DNA of 34,206 nucleotides from the NCBI GenBank assembly GCA_964574495.1, contig CAZNNT010000004.1, forward strand, positions 1 through 34,206, in the 5' to 3' direction. This document shows positions 26,262 through 32,926 of the stretch, piece after piece (within the stretch, counting starts at the first letter, position 1; every line of letters starts with the position of its first letter). The notes below the pieces were generated by a model, which saw nothing but the letters and a program-made list of their open reading frames with translations, ran no database searches and was not told the DNA's origin. The position numbers were made by a program, and so were the translations under genes. This DNA is from an uncultured Candidatus Saccharibacteria bacterium. GTDB lineage: Bacteria > Patescibacteriota > Minisyncoccia > HO2-45-28.

Positions 26262-26501
26262 ATGAAAAAATGCGCGATTTGCGGCAAAGGTTCACGTATG
26301 GGTGGGAAAAGAAATCTTTTGCGCGGCAAATACAACCCGACTAAAACCCTAAGAAAAAAACCCAATCTGCAATGGGCGCGCTTGCCCGTTGGAGCTTTAC
26401 TCGCCCGGCGTAGCCTTGGCGTAGCGGGGGCGAAGGCAGGGCTTCCCGATGGCAAAAGGGTTTTAGTTTGCACGAAGTGTATTAAAAAATTGTATAAGTA
26501 A
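26262..26501 (+). CDS. rpmB: 50S ribosomal protein L28 (Zn-binding type) with an about 20-aa in-frame insertion
   Basis: CAICGK...KPNLQ...RVLVCTKCIK. Confidence 0.92.
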   Translation: MKKCAICGKGSRMGGKRNLLRGKYNPTKTLRKKPNLQWARLPVGALLARRSLGVAGAKAGLPDGKRVLVCTKCIKKLYK

Positions 26502-26561
26502 CCCGCCCGCTGCGGCGGGCAAAGGCGGGGTGTAGTATACCGGCAGTACGCATGCATGGGG

Positions 26562-26629
26562 GTGAAGCGCGAAGATATTCGCGCTTCACGGGATTACTTC
26601 TTCTTAATATAAACAATAAAAGTAATCCC
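26562..26629 (+). repeat. Twin-hairpin insertion module (copy 1)
   Basis: GTGAAGCGCGAA-GATA-TTCGCGCTTCAC directly followed by GGGATTACTT-(..AATATAAACAAT..)-AAGTAATCCC. Confidence 0.75.
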
Positions 26630-26651
26630 TGGCTTTTTTGAGTTATTTGGT

Positions 26652-26725
26652 CGGGGTGTAGTATACCGGTAGTACGCATGCATGGGGTGCATGTAGACCG
26701 GGTTCGATTCCCGGCACCCCGACCA
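26652..26725 (+). tRNA. tRNA-Pro(GGG), intact, CCA encoded
   Basis: Acceptor CGGGGTG/CACCCCG, anticodon arm CATGC-ATGGGGT-GCATG, T arm CCGGG-TTCGATT-CCCGG, then ACCA. Confidence 0.95.
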
Positions 26726-26843
26726 GATAACTGAAAAAGATGTAGACCGGGTTCGATTCCCGGCACCCCGACCAAGTTAGAAAAGCGCGAGGAATTTGAC
26801 TATTTTATATCGCGTTTAAAATCTTTGCCACTGAAAAGAGAAA

Positions 26844-26880
26844 GGCCTCGACCACAGCATTGGATGCCGCAGTCGAGGCC
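26844..26880 (-). terminator. Terminator after 26897..27460
   Basis: GGCCTCGAC...GTCGAGGCC stem followed on the minus strand by TTTCTCTTTT. Confidence 0.7.
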
Positions 26881-26896
26881 GTTGGCCGAGCCGAGA

Positions 26897-27460
26897 TCAG
26901 GCGAGCGCATGGGTAGCGGCTCCGATTTTCTGGCTCAACTGTTCGAGCGAGAGCAGAGTTTCCTCGCCCTCATTCGTCCAGAGACGACGCGTGCCGACTT
27001 CGCAGCTGACACGACGCGACTTGTCGCCGCGAGTGAAGGAGAAGATGAGCTTGGGGTTCTTCCTCGAGGGCATCTGAAACGCGATGACCTTGATTCCCGT
27101 CTGCTCGAGCTCCGCCTTCTTCACTTCGGGAAGAAGTTGTGCAAGAAGGTCGTCGCCCTTCTTGATGCGATCCGCGTACTGACCGTCCATCAGGTCGCTG
27201 AGACCATCGGACGGCTTGAAGCGCGGATTGAACGGGCACTCGCGGATGTTGCACTGTCTGCAAACGATACCCTTGACCTTCGACAGGTGGGGCTCTTCCA
27301 ACATCAGTGCACCGCGAGTCCACTCGGCCGTCTTCATTCCCGCGGCTTCGAGTTGCGGGATGAGGACTGTCGCCAAGTAGGGCTGATGATCCTCGGGGAT
27401 GAGACATCCCTTCGGAAAACAGCACGTTTCCAGAACGTTGAACGTTCTTTCAGTTTCCAC
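26897..27460 (-). CDS. Cys-rich hypothetical cargo protein (GC-rich, foreign-looking)
   Basis: GTG start with AAGGAG SD, own promoter and terminator; TCCFPKGC and CRQCNIRECPFNP. Confidence 0.75.
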   Translation of the reverse strand: METERTFNVLETCCFPKGCLIPEDHQPYLATVLIPQLEAAGMKTAEWTRGALMLEEPHLSKVKGIVCRQCNIRECPFNPRFKPSDGLSDLMDGQYADRIKKGDDLLAQLLPEVKKAELEQTGIKVIAFQMPSRKNPKLIFSFTRGDKSRRVSCEVGTRRLWTNEGEETLLSLEQLSQKIGAATHALA

Positions 27461-30790: not shown

Positions 30791-30919
30791 AAAGATAGCA
30801 TATTACTATCTTTATGTCAAAATTTTTGAGTAAAATTAACTGGCGCGGGTGCAGGATTTGAACCTGCGAGGGGATTTCTCCCCAACTGGTTTTCGAGACC
30901 CCGTACAAAATTTGACTAT

Positions 30920-31006
30920 CGGCGGGAGAGGGATTCGAACCCCCGATACCCTTTCGGGTATACCGCATTTCGAGTGCGGCCCGTTCGTCCACTCCGGCAT
31001 CCCGCC
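30920..31006 (-). tRNA. tRNA-Ser(CGA), intact inner copy, CCA not encoded
   Basis: GGCGGGA/TCCCGCC acceptor, CCGCA-CTCGAAA-TGCGG, variable arm ATACCC-GAAA-GGGTAT, GGTTCGAATCC, G73. Confidence 0.95.
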
Positions 31007-31042
31007 AAATTTTTATACGGGGCGAGCCAGCGCTTTAGTCCG

Positions 31043-31107
31043 GGGCGACAAATTTTTTATATTTATTACTGTAGTCGCCCGTCAAAAGCTACTTAAACGC
31101 TTTTGAC
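31043..31107 (-). repeat. Twin-hairpin insertion module (copy 2)
   Basis: Minus strand GTCAAAAGC-9 nt-GCTTTTGAC directly followed by GGGCGAC-(..AATATAAAAAAT..)-GTCGCCC. Confidence 0.75.
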
Positions 31108-31177
31108 CCGCTCAGCCAACCCACCTCAATATTGGTCATATTGAGTTTAGCAGAAGAAATTGATATTCCAAAAAAGT

Positions 31178-31372: not shown

Positions 31373-32926
31373 TCATGCTTCTCTTATTTCATTATACAAC
31401 TCCGGATATTTTTCGGCTAGCGCCGTGATTATCCCCATTAATTTTTCTTTGACCGCGTATTGCTTCTCTTCAATTCTAGCCGATGCCTCCCCCTCTTTTT
31501 CCGGCGCCTCCTCGGCAATATGCAAACTGGCCAGCGTTTCCAATTTCTTTGTTTCCTCTTGATGCGCCGGGGTCTTAACCTTAATGTCTTCAACGGAATG
31601 ATGCCTGAAAAATAATCTGGCGGCCTCTACCATATTAAAATTAACATCCAATTTTAGACAGACCATATCCACGATAACCAGCCCCCGCAAAAAAGCGATG
31701 ACATCCGAAGGAAACTTGAGTCGGTATTTTTCTATGGTCTTGGCGATTCTTAAAAACGCGCGGGCTGAACTTCTTTCGCTGATATCCGCTTCCTTGTTGC
31801 CGGTAAAAAAATTCCAGTCCTTGAGAATCGGCGCCACATCCTCGGTCAGGCGGCGCGTAATAAAGTCCAGGGTTACTTCGTAAATTTTTTGGATTTTGGA
31901 ATCGCTTTCTATCAATCCCCCGTATTCTTTGACAAGTCGCTTGTCTAAAAATTCAACAAGACCTTCAGCGCTTTCGCGAAAATCCATCTCCGTTGCTCCT
32001 TTGATGAAACGTAGTAGCCCAAAATTATCGTATAGAGACCGCCCGATTATTCCGAAATCAATGTAGCCGATTCGGCTTCCGGGAAAAATAAGGAGATTGG
32101 CTGGATGAGGGTCGGCATGGAAAAATCCGTCTATGAAATATTGCCTCATCAGGTCGTGTATGAAAGAATTGGCCGCGTCCAGCAGGTTTATTTTTCGTTC
32201 ATCCAGTATTTTTTTAAGGTCTTCCGGCCTGGTTTCCAGATAAACCATTATCCTTTTGGCCTGGCTCCCATCAAGAAATTCCTGCACTAGGACCTTTTTA
32301 GTCGTAAATTCCGGATATATTTTAGGGATAACCACATTTTCAAGATTATGCCTTTTTGCGTGCTCATAAAGAATTTTATTGTTTTGGGCTTCTTTGGATT
32401 AATCAAGTTCGTCGGAGAGCCACTCTTTCAGCTGGATTAAAATTTCTTTGGAAGAGACCGATTTTAAAATCCCCCAGAAATCTATAAAGAAAAAGGCCAA
32501 TTTTAAAAAGAGCAGGTCGGCTTTAATGTATTTATCGCTTTCGGGCTTCTGTATTTTGACCACTATATTTTCTCCGTTCAAAACCCCTTTATATACTTGG
32601 GCGAAAGAGGCCGAGCCAATCGGTCTTCTTTCAATTCGTTCAAAAACCTCTTCCAATTTTTTTCCGGCTTCTTTTTCAAAAACATCAAACATTCTTTCAT
32701 CCGAAACCGGCTTTACATTGTCTAAAATATCCATTAATCCCCGGGCGTAATTTATTGGCAGAATATCAAAACGCATCGCCAGAATCTGGCCGAGTTTTAT
32801 GTAAACGCCGCCCAACTCTTCAAGAATCAAGCGCAAGCGGGTCGGGCCGTCCGCGCGCTTCAAAAAATATTTAATTAAGACCGCCGGCAAAGAAAAAAGG
32901 CGCCCTATAAAAACCAAAAAAATCAT
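31373..32926 (-). pseudogene. ABC1/UbiB/AarF family kinase interrupted by one in-frame TAA at 32401-32399
   Basis: The two ORFs are in the same frame: YIKLGQ, IGSASFAQVY, VVKIQKP, ELD*SKEAQN, FFHADPHPAN and IDFG. Full length would be 517 codons. Confidence 0.85.

Follow-up and report, generated by a model that had tools for sequence, protein, structure and literature searches.

An intact tRNA-Pro(GGG) gene between the halves of a second one: a recurring design in tiny groundwater bacteria that may reflect self-replacing tRNA cassettes

Mobile elements residing in essential genes spare their host by self-splicing, as introns and inteins do, by restoring the end of the gene, or by landing beside it. 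In tRNA genes, the anticodon loop and the T loop are the usual sublocations for integrative elements, and Williams reportedly traced tRNA gene fragments to such elements (attL/attR) in 2002. Free-standing GIY-YIG homing endonucleases, such as SegB of phage T4, are likewise linked to tRNA genes, and in mitochondria, GIY-YIG or LAGLIDADG ORFs that enter a gene provide it with a substitute 3′ part, for instance in fungal atp6. As for tRNA-Pro itself, we take the C1-G72 pair to be the bacterial identity, and the sufA and sufB variants are +1 frameshift suppressors with an enlarged anticodon loop. The available part of the work by van der Gulik et al. (2023; PMC9897764) also deals with tRNA gene fragments left by integrative elements. 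In the literature searched on the bacteria studied here, mostly open-access main texts, neither the nesting of one tRNA gene in another nor GIY-YIG genes tied to tRNA genes are described.

Here, we analysed a window of 34,206 nucleotides from an uncultured Candidatus Saccharibacteria bacterium (contig CAZNNT010000004.1), whose genome, termed G000, is 96.5% complete. At positions 26526-26774, an intact tRNA-Pro(GGG) gene lies between a 36-nucleotide 5′ half and a 35-nucleotide 3′ half of a second tRNA-Pro(GGG) gene, and the flanks of the intact gene pair over 16-18 bp. The conserved upstream neighbour is an ORF for ribosomal protein L28, rpmB (26262-26501, plus strand), which marks the ancestral position of tRNA-Pro(GGG), and between rpmB and the composite lies a GC-rich hairpin (26502-26523) that forms a terminator-like stem on the minus strand. 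All parts of the composite are on the plus strand. The outer 5′ piece (26526-26561), 24 nucleotides after rpmB, covers standard positions 1 to 37, that is, acceptor, D arm, 5′ anticodon stem, anticodon and G37; it is identical to 26652-26687 of the inner gene at 35 of 36 positions, the sole difference being C/T at 26544/26670. It is followed by insert hairpin 1 (26562-26589), a perfect 12-bp stem (arms 26562-26573 and 26578-26589) that begins with GT and finishes with AC, and by insert hairpin 2 (26590-26629), a perfect 10-bp GGG..CCC stem (arms 26590-26599 and 26620-26629) with an A+T-rich loop of 20 nucleotides. The trinucleotide TGG (26630-26632; NGG in other composites) separates the two insert blocks and, by alignment, occupies the place of outer positions 38-40. 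The second block starts with the 5′ arm of the enclosing helix, or hairpin 3 (26633-26651), which begins with CT and pairs with the 3′ arm at 26722-26739 (16 bp, -17.3 kcal/mol). Within this helix lies the inner tRNA-Pro(GGG) (26652-26725), intact and with an encoded CCA, as called by ARAGORN and by Rfam RF00005 (55.8 bits). The 3′ arm finishes with AG and shares its ACCA with the end of the inner tRNA; 26635-26658 and 26715-26738 are 92% complementary over 24 nucleotides, including the acceptor stem and the ACCA. Finally, the outer 3′ piece (26740-26774) extends from standard position 41 to the CCA and is identical to 26691-26725 at all 35 positions. In an alignment of the outer halves with the inner gene, 71 of 72 positions match.

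The predicted fold of the 249-nucleotide stretch is multi-branched, as had been anticipated from the sequence, with a free energy of -118.8 kcal/mol (z = -7.98), a value matched by none of 200 shuffled sequences. Moreover, every part that the earlier note had listed was found in place, including the small hairpins at the 5′ edges of the outer tRNAs and the sister locus for tRNA-Ser. The 178-nucleotide Pro insert contains no ORF, and no other copy of 26562-26651 was found in G000. When anticodon-loop introns of up to 400 nucleotides were allowed, ARAGORN did not call the outer gene, nor any intron-bearing tRNA genome-wide. The inner tRNA-Pro(GGG) is taken to be the working gene. Hairpin 2 was also considered as a promoter of the inner gene; a consensus scan gave no plus-strand site in 26526-26774, and the A+T-rich loop, present in only three of five aligned composites, told against this idea.

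In these tiny groundwater bacteria, the nested design is encountered at many tRNA genes. In G000 alone we observed eight nested loci. The sister Ser locus (30841-31125, minus strand) contains an inner tRNA-Ser(CGA) at 30919-31007 within paired arms, and an outer tRNA-Ser(CGA) in three pieces (31125-31098, 31030-27 and 30898-30841) with two hairpins between the pieces. The order of parts is that of the Pro locus, as had been noted before; however, the two Ser genes are no duplicates of each other, as only 55 of 88 aligned positions are identical, and the corresponding values are 55/69 for Ala and 55/73 for Thr. A leader-trailer duplex of -19.7 kcal/mol or lower is formed by 7 of the 37 tRNAs of G000, the remainder reaching -16.1 kcal/mol or weaker, and all seven are nested among the pieces of a gene with the same anticodon. 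The Glu(CTC) gene is nested without arms, and at Lys(TTT) and Glu(TTC), inserts of 125-165 nucleotides are bordered by one-sided 3′ repeats. The outer Ala and Ser(CGA) genes are complete once the inserts are removed, and the anticodon stem of the outer Thr gene is unpaired.

A scan for intact tRNAs between arms and tRNA halves yielded many cases in other genomes as well, among them at least 14 further tRNA-Pro composites. Taken together with the eight loci in G000, they bear out the suggestion that the nesting reflects a general mechanism and not an accident. The site after rpmB, located by tblastn, holds a plain tRNA-Pro(GGG) 13-24 nucleotides downstream of rpmB in four relatives (G001, G007, G008 and G013), a composite in G000, a composite with different arms in G031, and an intact gene followed by a tRNA-less relic in G016. 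At locus L023, which adjoins a peptidase M17 gene, three layers are nested. The non-tRNA parts of the G000 cassette are 63-74% identical to those of composites in other neighbourhoods (L023, G050). Within the genus, the outer 5′ half of a Pro(CGG) gene is intact in G004, disrupted by a hairpin in G001 and absent from G003. In the closed genome of G003, 11 tRNAs in the first 396 kb were tiled by BLAST, which is blind to diverged outer pieces, and this added just a Lys(TTT) 3′ repeat and an Asn-like fragment.

Two of these loci in G000 include a small GIY-YIG endonuclease gene. At the nested Gln and Glu loci, a GIY-YIG ORF (C1:13265-13465 and C14:5634-5846, respectively) separates the inner gene from the outer 5′ piece, and all seven small GIY-YIG ORFs of this genome adjoin a tRNA or tmRNA gene. 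When the best GIY-YIG locus per genome was considered in relatives, 20 of 30 had a tRNA or tmRNA gene on the same strand within 170 nucleotides, and at seven loci a 5′ fragment, identical over the aligned 12-55 nucleotides, lies upstream of the GIY-YIG ORF or overlaps it. The Pro cassette contains no endonuclease gene, which counts against a homing view. Judged from their sequences, the 5′ inserts of 14 other Pro composites are too short for such a gene; tblastn gave no GIY-YIG match at 11 Pro composite loci, and none of the best GIY-YIG loci of the 30 genomes adjoins a tRNA-Pro.

The structure of the insert is conserved well beyond its sequence. The enclosing stem comprises 15-18 bp in all five aligned composites, with arm sequences only about 50% identical; the earlier note had named a lack of conservation of this stem as grounds for abandoning its reading, and the stem proved to be kept throughout. 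Hairpin 2 folds in all five at a mean sequence identity of 37%, 6 of the 10 pairs of hairpin 1 are changed on both sides across the five composites, and the enclosing arm helices contribute 12 such pairs. Overall, counted on just five sequences, 25 of 82 pairs are changed on both sides, and 91% of the cells are paired as opposed to 32-49% with the partners slid. Moreover, composites for each of the three Pro isoacceptors and for Ser(CGA) share the three-hairpin layout (GT..AC, GGG..CCC, NGG, CT..AG), maintained through compensating changes, with the tRNA located in hairpin 1, 2 or 3. Such conservation would be expected if the RNA were structured and functional and its terminal loops permissive. 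Complementarity of palindromes can also be maintained without selection, through template-switch mutation. In contrast to the inner acceptor, T and anticodon stems, which are fully paired in all five composites, the outer stems are so in only two; the inner T stem shows three compensated pairs, the outer T stem none and two broken ones. Outer 3′ halves with additional T-loop insertions or losses were found at L022, L027/28, L023 (third layer), G015 and L024, and a single outer acceptor pair covaries, in G050. As far as can be read from these alignments, the outer copies are under relaxed constraint. It should be noted that direct repeats of 35-36 nucleotides lying 14 and 90 nucleotides apart would be expected to disappear rapidly through slippage, so that their persistence needs recency, gene conversion or selection.

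We consider it somewhat more probable than all else that a self-replacing tRNA cassette entered a cognate tRNA-Pro(GGG) gene, leaving the outer halves as relics and the inner gene as the working copy. A resident tRNA-Pro(GGG) at its ancestral place after rpmB would have been split in the anticodon loop by an insert with its own complete tRNA-Pro(GGG), and the outer 5′ and 3′ halves would be the remains of the old gene that are not joined into a tRNA. The insert would represent one of a lineage-wide set of insertions targeted to tRNA genes, some of which carry a small GIY-YIG endonuclease gene, and the harm would be avoided through whole or partial replacement of the broken gene. Most likely, its spread would be homing-like: a cut in the cognate tRNA gene would be mended with a cassette-bearing copy as template, for which the conserved tRNA halves would presumably provide the homology. 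Since the cassette contains an intact target, the process could be repeated, which would generate layers. The arms and hairpins would be parts of the insert; their likeliest role would be in the transcript, where they would form helices that delimit the inner pre-tRNA and allow its release, and RNase III is encoded in the genome. We count the presence or absence of the composite at one rpmB site in favour of insertion, and the low inner-outer identity of the Ser, Ala and Thr loci in favour of a foreign origin. Further points on its side are the recurrence of the design, the relaxed outer copies, the GIY-YIG genes next to tRNA genes, the three layers of L023 and the results on splicing given below. 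Against the cassette reading we count the near-identity of the two Pro copies in G000 and the covarying outer acceptor pair in G050; furthermore, the conserved layout described above is not accounted for by it.

Among the alternatives, an origin by rearrangement in situ, without a mobile element, is unlikely and only marginally ahead of a functional nested RNA and of a cassette with another engine. A partial duplication of the tRNA by slippage or template switching at palindromic stems would have been followed by gene conversion and later accretion of hairpins. The 71 of 72 identical positions in G000 are in line with such a history, as are the lack of a mobility gene in the cassette and the outer T loop of L026, which matches the inner one and suggests conversion between the layers. 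However, at three further nested loci of G000 the inner and outer genes are only 62-80% identical, the arms form a single unit around the inner gene, and the non-tRNA parts of the cassette resemble those of L023 and G050 in other neighbourhoods. In addition, the rpmB site holds different cassette types in G000 and G031.

That the locus encodes a functional nested RNA appears improbable to us. Here, the three-hairpin insert would act like an intron within a single transcript, and the inner tRNA would be freed by RNase P together with processing at the 3′ side. The outer pieces would either be joined to a second tRNA-Pro, whose anticodon stem would contain a G.G mismatch or whose loop would have 8 nucleotides, or form a two-piece tRNA-like RNA held by the arms. 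The conserved layout and junction letters, the both-side changes and the tolerance of any of the three terminal loops for a tRNA argue for this reading, as does the completeness of the outer Ala and Ser(CGA) genes without their inserts; likewise, as NGG is kept at positions 38-40, an almost normal tRNA would result if both blocks were cleanly excised. However, the target letters stay intact after a clean insertion under any model, and the broken outer stems in three of five composites, the disrupted outer T loops in several genomes and the unpaired outer Thr anticodon stem are at odds with a functional outer tRNA.

Searches for a splicing machinery point in the same direction. The tRNA-splicing endonuclease EndA (PF01974) gave no match in G000 and was recovered in 4/4 archaeal controls, and the RtcB ligase gave none in a search that was positive in 10 control genomes. 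The group I intron model RF00028 had no match in the window at the gathering score and none in 26450-26850 at E-values up to 1; the intron of tRNA-Asn served as positive control (75.3 bits). A loose Rfam search of 26450-26850 revealed no ribozyme, only weak tRNA-like matches below gathering scores, and by eye the exon-insert junctions abut fully paired helices without 3-nucleotide bulges. Reverse transcriptase (PF00078) was not found in G000 either, which weighs against an RNA-copy route without excluding it. Moreover, each hairpin-interrupted tRNA of this genome is accompanied by an intact cognate copy; the only interrupted tRNA that is not, tRNA-Asn, contains the group I intron. Together with the lack of EndA and RtcB matches, this suggests that the composites have neither need nor means for splicing.

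These results also bear on the proposal that joining of the outer pieces creates an 8-nucleotide anticodon loop and thereby a +1 frameshift suppressor. Numerically, such a join would work out, with TGG 26630-26632 in place of outer positions 38-40, but a contiguous anticodon arm for the outer tRNA-Pro is not encoded. Given that EndA and RtcB were not found, that an intact cognate stands beside each hairpin-interrupted tRNA and that in most genomes the outer copies carry unpaired stem positions or additional insertions, the proposal found no support. In the same vein, we regard it as quite improbable that the tRNA-within-tRNA gene is used as such, with an inner tRNA generated by end processing and a second RNA derived from the outer halves and the insert. 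For this second RNA, two forms are conceivable: a variant tRNA-Pro whose anticodon arm is altered, made by splicing through an unknown bacterial pathway, or a tRNA-like molecule in two pieces. The covariation of the hairpins, the constant junction letters, the NGG and the free placement of the inner tRNA would then denote a new structured RNA and not a scar.

A cassette that moves by another engine is likewise improbable. In this case, folded single-stranded DNA would be moved by a Y1/HUH transposase of the IS200 or RAYT type into exposed hairpin loops, which would account for hairpins in loops in loops. The insertions are indeed found in D, anticodon, T and hairpin loops and are themselves hairpins, either empty or with a tRNA, and G000 has three Y1_Tnp-like ORFs of 226-240 amino acids, each with its own flanking hairpins. 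These hairpins, however, are unlike the Pro arms, and the insert has no second copy in G000. A census of perfect hairpins with stems of at least 8 bp revealed no multi-copy family: the largest group, sharing a 7-nucleotide stem start, has seven mostly A+T-rich members, and the enrichment of hairpins in the vicinity of tRNAs is weak (40 of the 1433 listed, of which 539 are N-run artefacts).

Decayed attL/attR scars, left by integrase-driven elements that once resided in the tRNA gene and were later deleted nearly completely, are a far less probable source. According to the available part of PMC9897764, integration usually leaves fragments of tRNAs next to tRNA genes, and the exact 3′ repeat of the Pro locus as well as the one-sided repeats at Lys(TTT) and Glu(TTC) would fit. 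However, both halves are duplicated around a central intact gene, and the flanks pair with each other, which is unexpected of two independent scars. Moreover, the 10 neighbouring ORFs include no integrase; the single Phage_integrase-family gene of the genome is distant, on contig C2.

The assembly of the locus was checked with Logan contigs of four runs from two studies. Run X1 contains the exact pieces 26408-26561, 26534-26700, 26696-26769 and 26745-27100; in study P2, run X6 contains the same middle pieces and run X3 the 26696-26769 piece and one from the 26535-26686 stretch. Each unique junction is thereby reproduced by assembly pieces from two independent studies. As the pieces stop within the 35-36-nucleotide repeats, several junctions are backed on one side by just 28-30 letters, short of the 31 letters required for bridging, and the composite is not spanned in full by any one piece. 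Only in the nested order is there a path that uses every piece once. Although the piece ends in the repeats would allow for a repeat-induced misassembly of one tRNA-Pro gene, we deem this scarcely credible, because exact pieces cover each unique junction, the C/T difference marks the outer 5′ copy, and at least 14 other assemblies from different projects show the same design. As a separate observation, runs X1 and X6 also contain a joint of 26501 to 26658, which may stem from a coexisting relative whose rpmB is followed by a plain gene; this joint was left out of the assessment.

If the cassette reading is correct, it would account for the tRNA halves, arms and small GIY-YIG genes that border tRNA genes in these ultra-small genomes. 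It would also provide a route for the exchange of tRNA genes between distant lineages and offer a family of tRNA-gene-specific endonucleases as candidates. For annotation it would imply that, in this group, a tRNA half or a "split" tRNA is in most cases a relic. If, in turn, the locus encoded a functional nested RNA, it would be the first tRNA housed in the insert of a bacterial tRNA.

Compared with the known systems, the cassette shares with integrative elements that a tRNA gene is targeted and an intact gene restored with a partial duplicate left alongside. In contrast to these elements, the Pro insert comprises only about 180 nucleotides, lacks an integrase and has mutually paired flanks. 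The borders do form direct repeats as at an integrase scar (35/35 and 35/36 identical), but the duplication is not one-sided: because the insert carries a whole tRNA gene inside the old one, both halves are duplicated. With REP/REPIN sequences and their RAYT transposases the locus shares neither a second insert copy nor a large hairpin family, and the Y1 genes are flanked by other hairpins. The enlarged anticodon loop of sufA and sufB would be mirrored by one way of joining the outer pieces; there, however, the genes are contiguous and the extra base lies in the anticodon, whereas here two unproven excisions would place it 3′ of position 38. The archaeal intron-containing, split and permuted tRNA genes (available parts of PMC3218864, PMC4033280 and PMC3978253) likewise have loop interruptions, sometimes several, and paired flanks that join the halves, but depend on a splicing endonuclease and RtcB acting at bulge-helix-bulge motifs, and neither enzyme was found in G000. 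The tRNA-Pro described here, with C1-G72, is of the bacterial kind. A whole tRNA inside an archaeal tRNA intron was not found in the literature searched. Group I introns of bacterial tRNA anticodon loops (available part of PMC3984707) have the same target site and are mobilised by homing endonucleases; in contrast, the 178-nucleotide Pro insert is too small for such an intron and lacks a ribozyme match, and harm would be avoided by a spare gene and not by self-splicing.

The SegB type of homing (available part of PMC13096335) has in common with these loci that small GIY-YIG genes stand beside tRNA genes and that the tRNA region would be co-inherited with the endonuclease gene. It concerns, however, a phage tRNA cluster and not bacterial chromosomes, and here the target would be broken and replaced by a copy borne on the insert. 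Of the features of a homing element, presence and absence at the same site were observed, and the ORF within the insert occurs at Gln and Glu, although not in the Pro cassette. The mitochondrial ORFs resemble the cassette in that the damage is neutralised by a carried replacement, without splicing, and that the displaced original is a pseudogene. There, the end of a protein gene is replaced, whereas here a complete RNA gene would be replaced, nested and repeatedly. A cassette that breaks a tRNA gene but carries a complete spare, which is possible because tRNA genes are small, would thus represent a further strategy besides those known from introns, inteins and integrative elements, with nesting of up to three layers.

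The window is the complete contig C4 (34,206 nt) of a 783-kb genome in 55 contigs that is 96.5% complete. Its Pro(GGG) composite (26526-26774, plus strand) opens with a 36-nt outer tRNA-Pro(GGG) 5′ half matching the inner copy at 35/36 positions, followed by two perfect hairpins with stems of 12 bp and 10 bp, TGG and a 19-nt arm, the intact inner tRNA-Pro(GGG) (26652-26725, plus strand; ARAGORN; Rfam 55.8 bits), the complementary arm, which overlaps ACCA, and a 35-nt outer 3′ half matching the inner copy at 35/35 positions. The sequence agrees throughout with the part-by-part anatomy described in the earlier note, and folding of the 249 nt, which had been proposed as a test, yielded two hairpins, a long helix topped by a cloverleaf and, from the outer gene, an acceptor stem and a T arm, with an energy of -118.8 kcal/mol (z = -7.98). 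TGG, or NGG in related composites, occupies the slot of outer positions 38-40; thus, the outer gene contains two inserts and has lost no letters.

Repeat-induced misassembly could mimic such a structure. Independent assemblies of four runs, drawn from two studies, contained exact pieces for every unique junction; the runs containing the stretch are groundwater metagenomes. Run X1 provided pieces covering 26408-26561, 26534-26700, 26696-26769 and 26745-27100, with matching pieces in runs X3 and X6. Because the pieces break off within the 35-36-nt repeats, the shorter side of some junctions measures only 28-30 letters; no single assembly piece crosses the entire composite, and the nested order is the sole path that uses each piece once. 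These junctions from two studies and a like design in at least 14 other assemblies speak against misassembly, and the structure is treated as real. In addition, the ends of contigs C9, C13, C15, C34 and C55 fall inside tRNA genes or tRNA fragments, which suggests that repeated tRNA-linked elements cause breaks in this assembly.

When 61 related genomes were searched and two collections were scanned for exact patterns, tRNA-Pro composites were found to span several families and all three isoacceptors: GGG in genomes G050, G017 (contig C37) and G015 and at loci L022, L023, L024, L026 and L027/L028, CGG in G004, G001, G040 and G017 (contig C35), and TGG in G008 and G059. In most of them the insert follows, as judged from the sequences, a common layout, comprising the outer 5′ piece to G37, hairpin 1 (GT..AC), hairpin 2 (usually GGG..CCC), NGG, hairpin 3 (CT..AG) and the outer 3′ piece from position 41; the inserts of G040, G059 and G017 contig C35 are differently built. 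The intact tRNA lies in the loop of hairpin 3 in the genome under study, G050, G017, L023 and L026; L022, L027/28 and G015 have it in hairpin 2, and L024, G008, G004 and G001 in hairpin 1. A third, outermost 3′ half in L023 indicates nesting of up to three layers.

In an alignment of the five hairpin-3-type composites, arms of 15-18 bp are kept in 5/5 despite a mean arm identity of ~50%, at variance with the possibility raised earlier that the enclosing stem lacks conservation. Hairpins 1 and 2 likewise fold in all five, with identities of 50% and 37%, respectively. On the structure of the window's composite 91.2% of cells pair, compared with 82.5% after column shuffling (0/500 shuffles reach the observed value) and 32-49% with slid partners; both sides changed in 25 of 82 pairs, 12 of them in the arm-plus-acceptor helix. 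The conserved pairing of arms and hairpins in these five sequences is suggestive of function. However, short palindromes can hold symmetry through template-switch mutation, and with five sequences and such possible upkeep the covariation is not proof of function.

Pairing is complete in the inner acceptor, T and anticodon stems of 5/5 composites, but in the outer acceptor and T stems of only two. The inner T stem shows three compensated pairs, and the outer T stem none and two broken pairs. The outer 3′ half of L022 carries a 20-nt hairpin in its T loop, and larger insertions or losses affect this half in L027/28, G015, L024 and the third layer of L023. Within the genus the Pro(CGG) outer 5′ half is intact in G004, hairpin-interrupted in G001 and absent in G003. 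As judged from these sequences, the pattern is that of a putatively working inner gene and decaying outer pieces, although one outer acceptor pair of G050 changed on both sides and the outer halves in the window are nearly identical to the inner gene. Short G+C-rich hairpins also occur as clean insertions in D, anticodon and T loops of relic tRNA pieces (C1:13019-13129; L039 of G001; L022; L023); they often begin with CCTGCC or YCCCG, and some end like the arms enclosing inner tRNAs.

A plain tRNA-Pro(GGG) lies 13-24 nt past rpmB in G001, which belongs to the same genus, and in G007, G008 and G013. Since the outer 5′ piece in the window begins 24 nt past rpmB (26262-26501), the outer gene occupies the ancestral place. 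At this site G031 carries a composite of another type, with arms YCCCGT..ACGGGR, and in G016 an intact gene precedes a hairpin-containing relic that has no tRNA. The non-tRNA parts of the window's cassette are 74% identical to L023, which adjoins a peptidase M17 gene and has no detectable rpmB within its 8-kb locus, and 63% identical to G050, where rpmB lies ~2.3 kb from the composite on the opposite strand. That some sites are empty, that one site holds different cassettes and that similar cassettes occupy different sites points to repeated gain and loss rather than a single old event. The rpmB gene itself has, relative to G001, an in-frame insert of ~63 nt (21 residues) in ribosomal protein L28 at ~26376-26438, where summed contig depth rises sharply and a variant with 7 differences occurs in metagenome runs; the stretch resembles a small repeated element lodged in coding sequence. 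An ABC1 kinase-like gene (31373-32926, minus strand) appears as two successive ORFs of 175 and 320 aa, matching the first and second parts of the Pfam model, which could reflect a frameshift, an insertion or a real split.

All 38 ARAGORN tRNAs were compared against their own genome. Fragments adjoin intact genes at Ser(GCT), Thr(CGT), Glu(CTC), Leu(CAA), Glu(TTC), Lys(TTT) and Pro. A leader-trailer duplex of -19.7 kcal/mol or stronger was found in 7 of 37 tRNAs tested (Ala CGC, Pro GGG, Gln TTG, Leu CAA, Ser CGA, Ser GCT, Thr CGT), the remaining 30 reaching -16.1 kcal/mol or weaker; such pairing is not a genome-wide habit. All seven armed genes sit inside pieces of an older gene with the same anticodon, and Glu(CTC) is nested without arms. 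Together with the composites of other genomes, these eight loci uphold the earlier view of a general mechanism rather than accident. Inner and outer copies share 71/72 positions for Pro, 55/88 for Ser(CGA), 55/69 for Ala and 55/73 for Thr, the low identities indicating a foreign origin of the inner genes at three or more loci.

Besides seven small GIY-YIG ORFs, the genome encodes a long GIY-YIG-bearing open frame of 462 aa, which we guess to be UvrC-like. All seven small ORFs abut a tRNA or tmRNA gene: two lie past tmRNA (C12:7080-8300), where its 3′ end is repeated, two near-identical ones past tRNA-Gly(GCC) and tRNA-Gly(TCC) (C34:1414-1850 and C2:16260-16700), one past a Ser(GGA) piece at a contig end, one 33 nt upstream of Gln(TTG) and one 23 nt upstream of Glu(CTC). 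At the latter two loci, the 5′ and 3′ pieces of an older gene, Gln in one and Glu in the other, enclose both the ORF and the intact tRNA. Among the best-matching loci of 30 genomes, one per genome, a tRNA or tmRNA on the same strand lies no more than 170 nt from the GIY-YIG ORF in 20, against an estimated few per cent by chance; in seven of these the neighboring tRNA is represented by a 5′ fragment, identical across the 12-55 nt aligned, that lies upstream of or overlaps the ORF. In this group, GIY-YIG genes are thereby linked to tRNA genes being disrupted and replaced. The Pro cassette in the window lacks an ORF, and at the loci examined no tRNA-Pro had a GIY-YIG gene next to it; for this cassette the GIY-YIG enzymes are no more than a candidate engine.

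At C12:7080-8300 the tmRNA gene precedes two tandem units. Both begin with a copy of its final 18 nt, contain a small GIY-YIG ORF, truncated in the second unit, and end in a conserved ~100-nt module that is also present in the Lys(TTT) insert on C42. The two glycine tRNA genes are 96% identical in their last 28 nt and have in common an identical leader downstream and one and the same 96-aa GIY-YIG ORF, as if one element and the tRNA 3′ end had been copied between them. The genome's single tyrosine recombinase is distant from all nested loci, and a reverse transcriptase was not found in it. Three Y1-transposase-like ORFs of 226-240 aa occur in 0.78 Mb (C2:8411-8668, C1:54010-54225, C5:13201-13422), with a short hairpin of its own on either side of each, as is seen with REP-associated transposases; these hairpins are unlike the Pro arms. 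RNase III is encoded and could cut the 24-bp arm-plus-acceptor helix.

Neither tRNA-splicing endonuclease nor RtcB was found in this 96.5% complete genome, with control genomes as expected. A scan for interrupted tRNAs, in which orphan T arms were paired with matching acceptor strands, revealed one without an intact cognate copy, tRNA-Asn(GTT) (C22:11713-12346, L048), which ARAGORN misses, so that Asn seems absent from the tRNA set. The ~530 nt that interrupt its anticodon loop form a group I intron (RF00028, 75.3 bits, E = 4e-19) with, as judged by eye, an HNH-like ORF. In contrast, a spare intact gene accompanies every hairpin-type insert; splicing, where needed, thus relies on a self-splicing intron.

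Taken together, a compact cassette with its own tRNA-Pro(GGG) would have entered the anticodon loop of a resident gene, possibly by homing, the inner gene then working and the outer halves remaining as relics. The cassette would belong to a lineage-wide family of tRNA-targeted insertions bringing replacements, some of which carry GIY-YIG endonuclease genes. We consider this account the most economical and, on balance, somewhat probable. Outside it fall the conserved three-hairpin layout, the fixed junction letters and the tolerance of a tRNA in any of three loops, which leave room for reading the composite as a functional RNA, an alternative we hold to be improbable. The +1 frameshift suppressor proposed in the earlier note finds no backing other than the arithmetic of a hypothetical join.

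With respect to the cassette account, no nested tRNA genes in these bacteria were found in the main-text literature to which the search extended. The nearest described systems comprise the tRNA fragments that integrative elements leave behind (PMC9897764), tRNA genes with group I introns, T4 SegB, and the split or permuted tRNAs of archaea.
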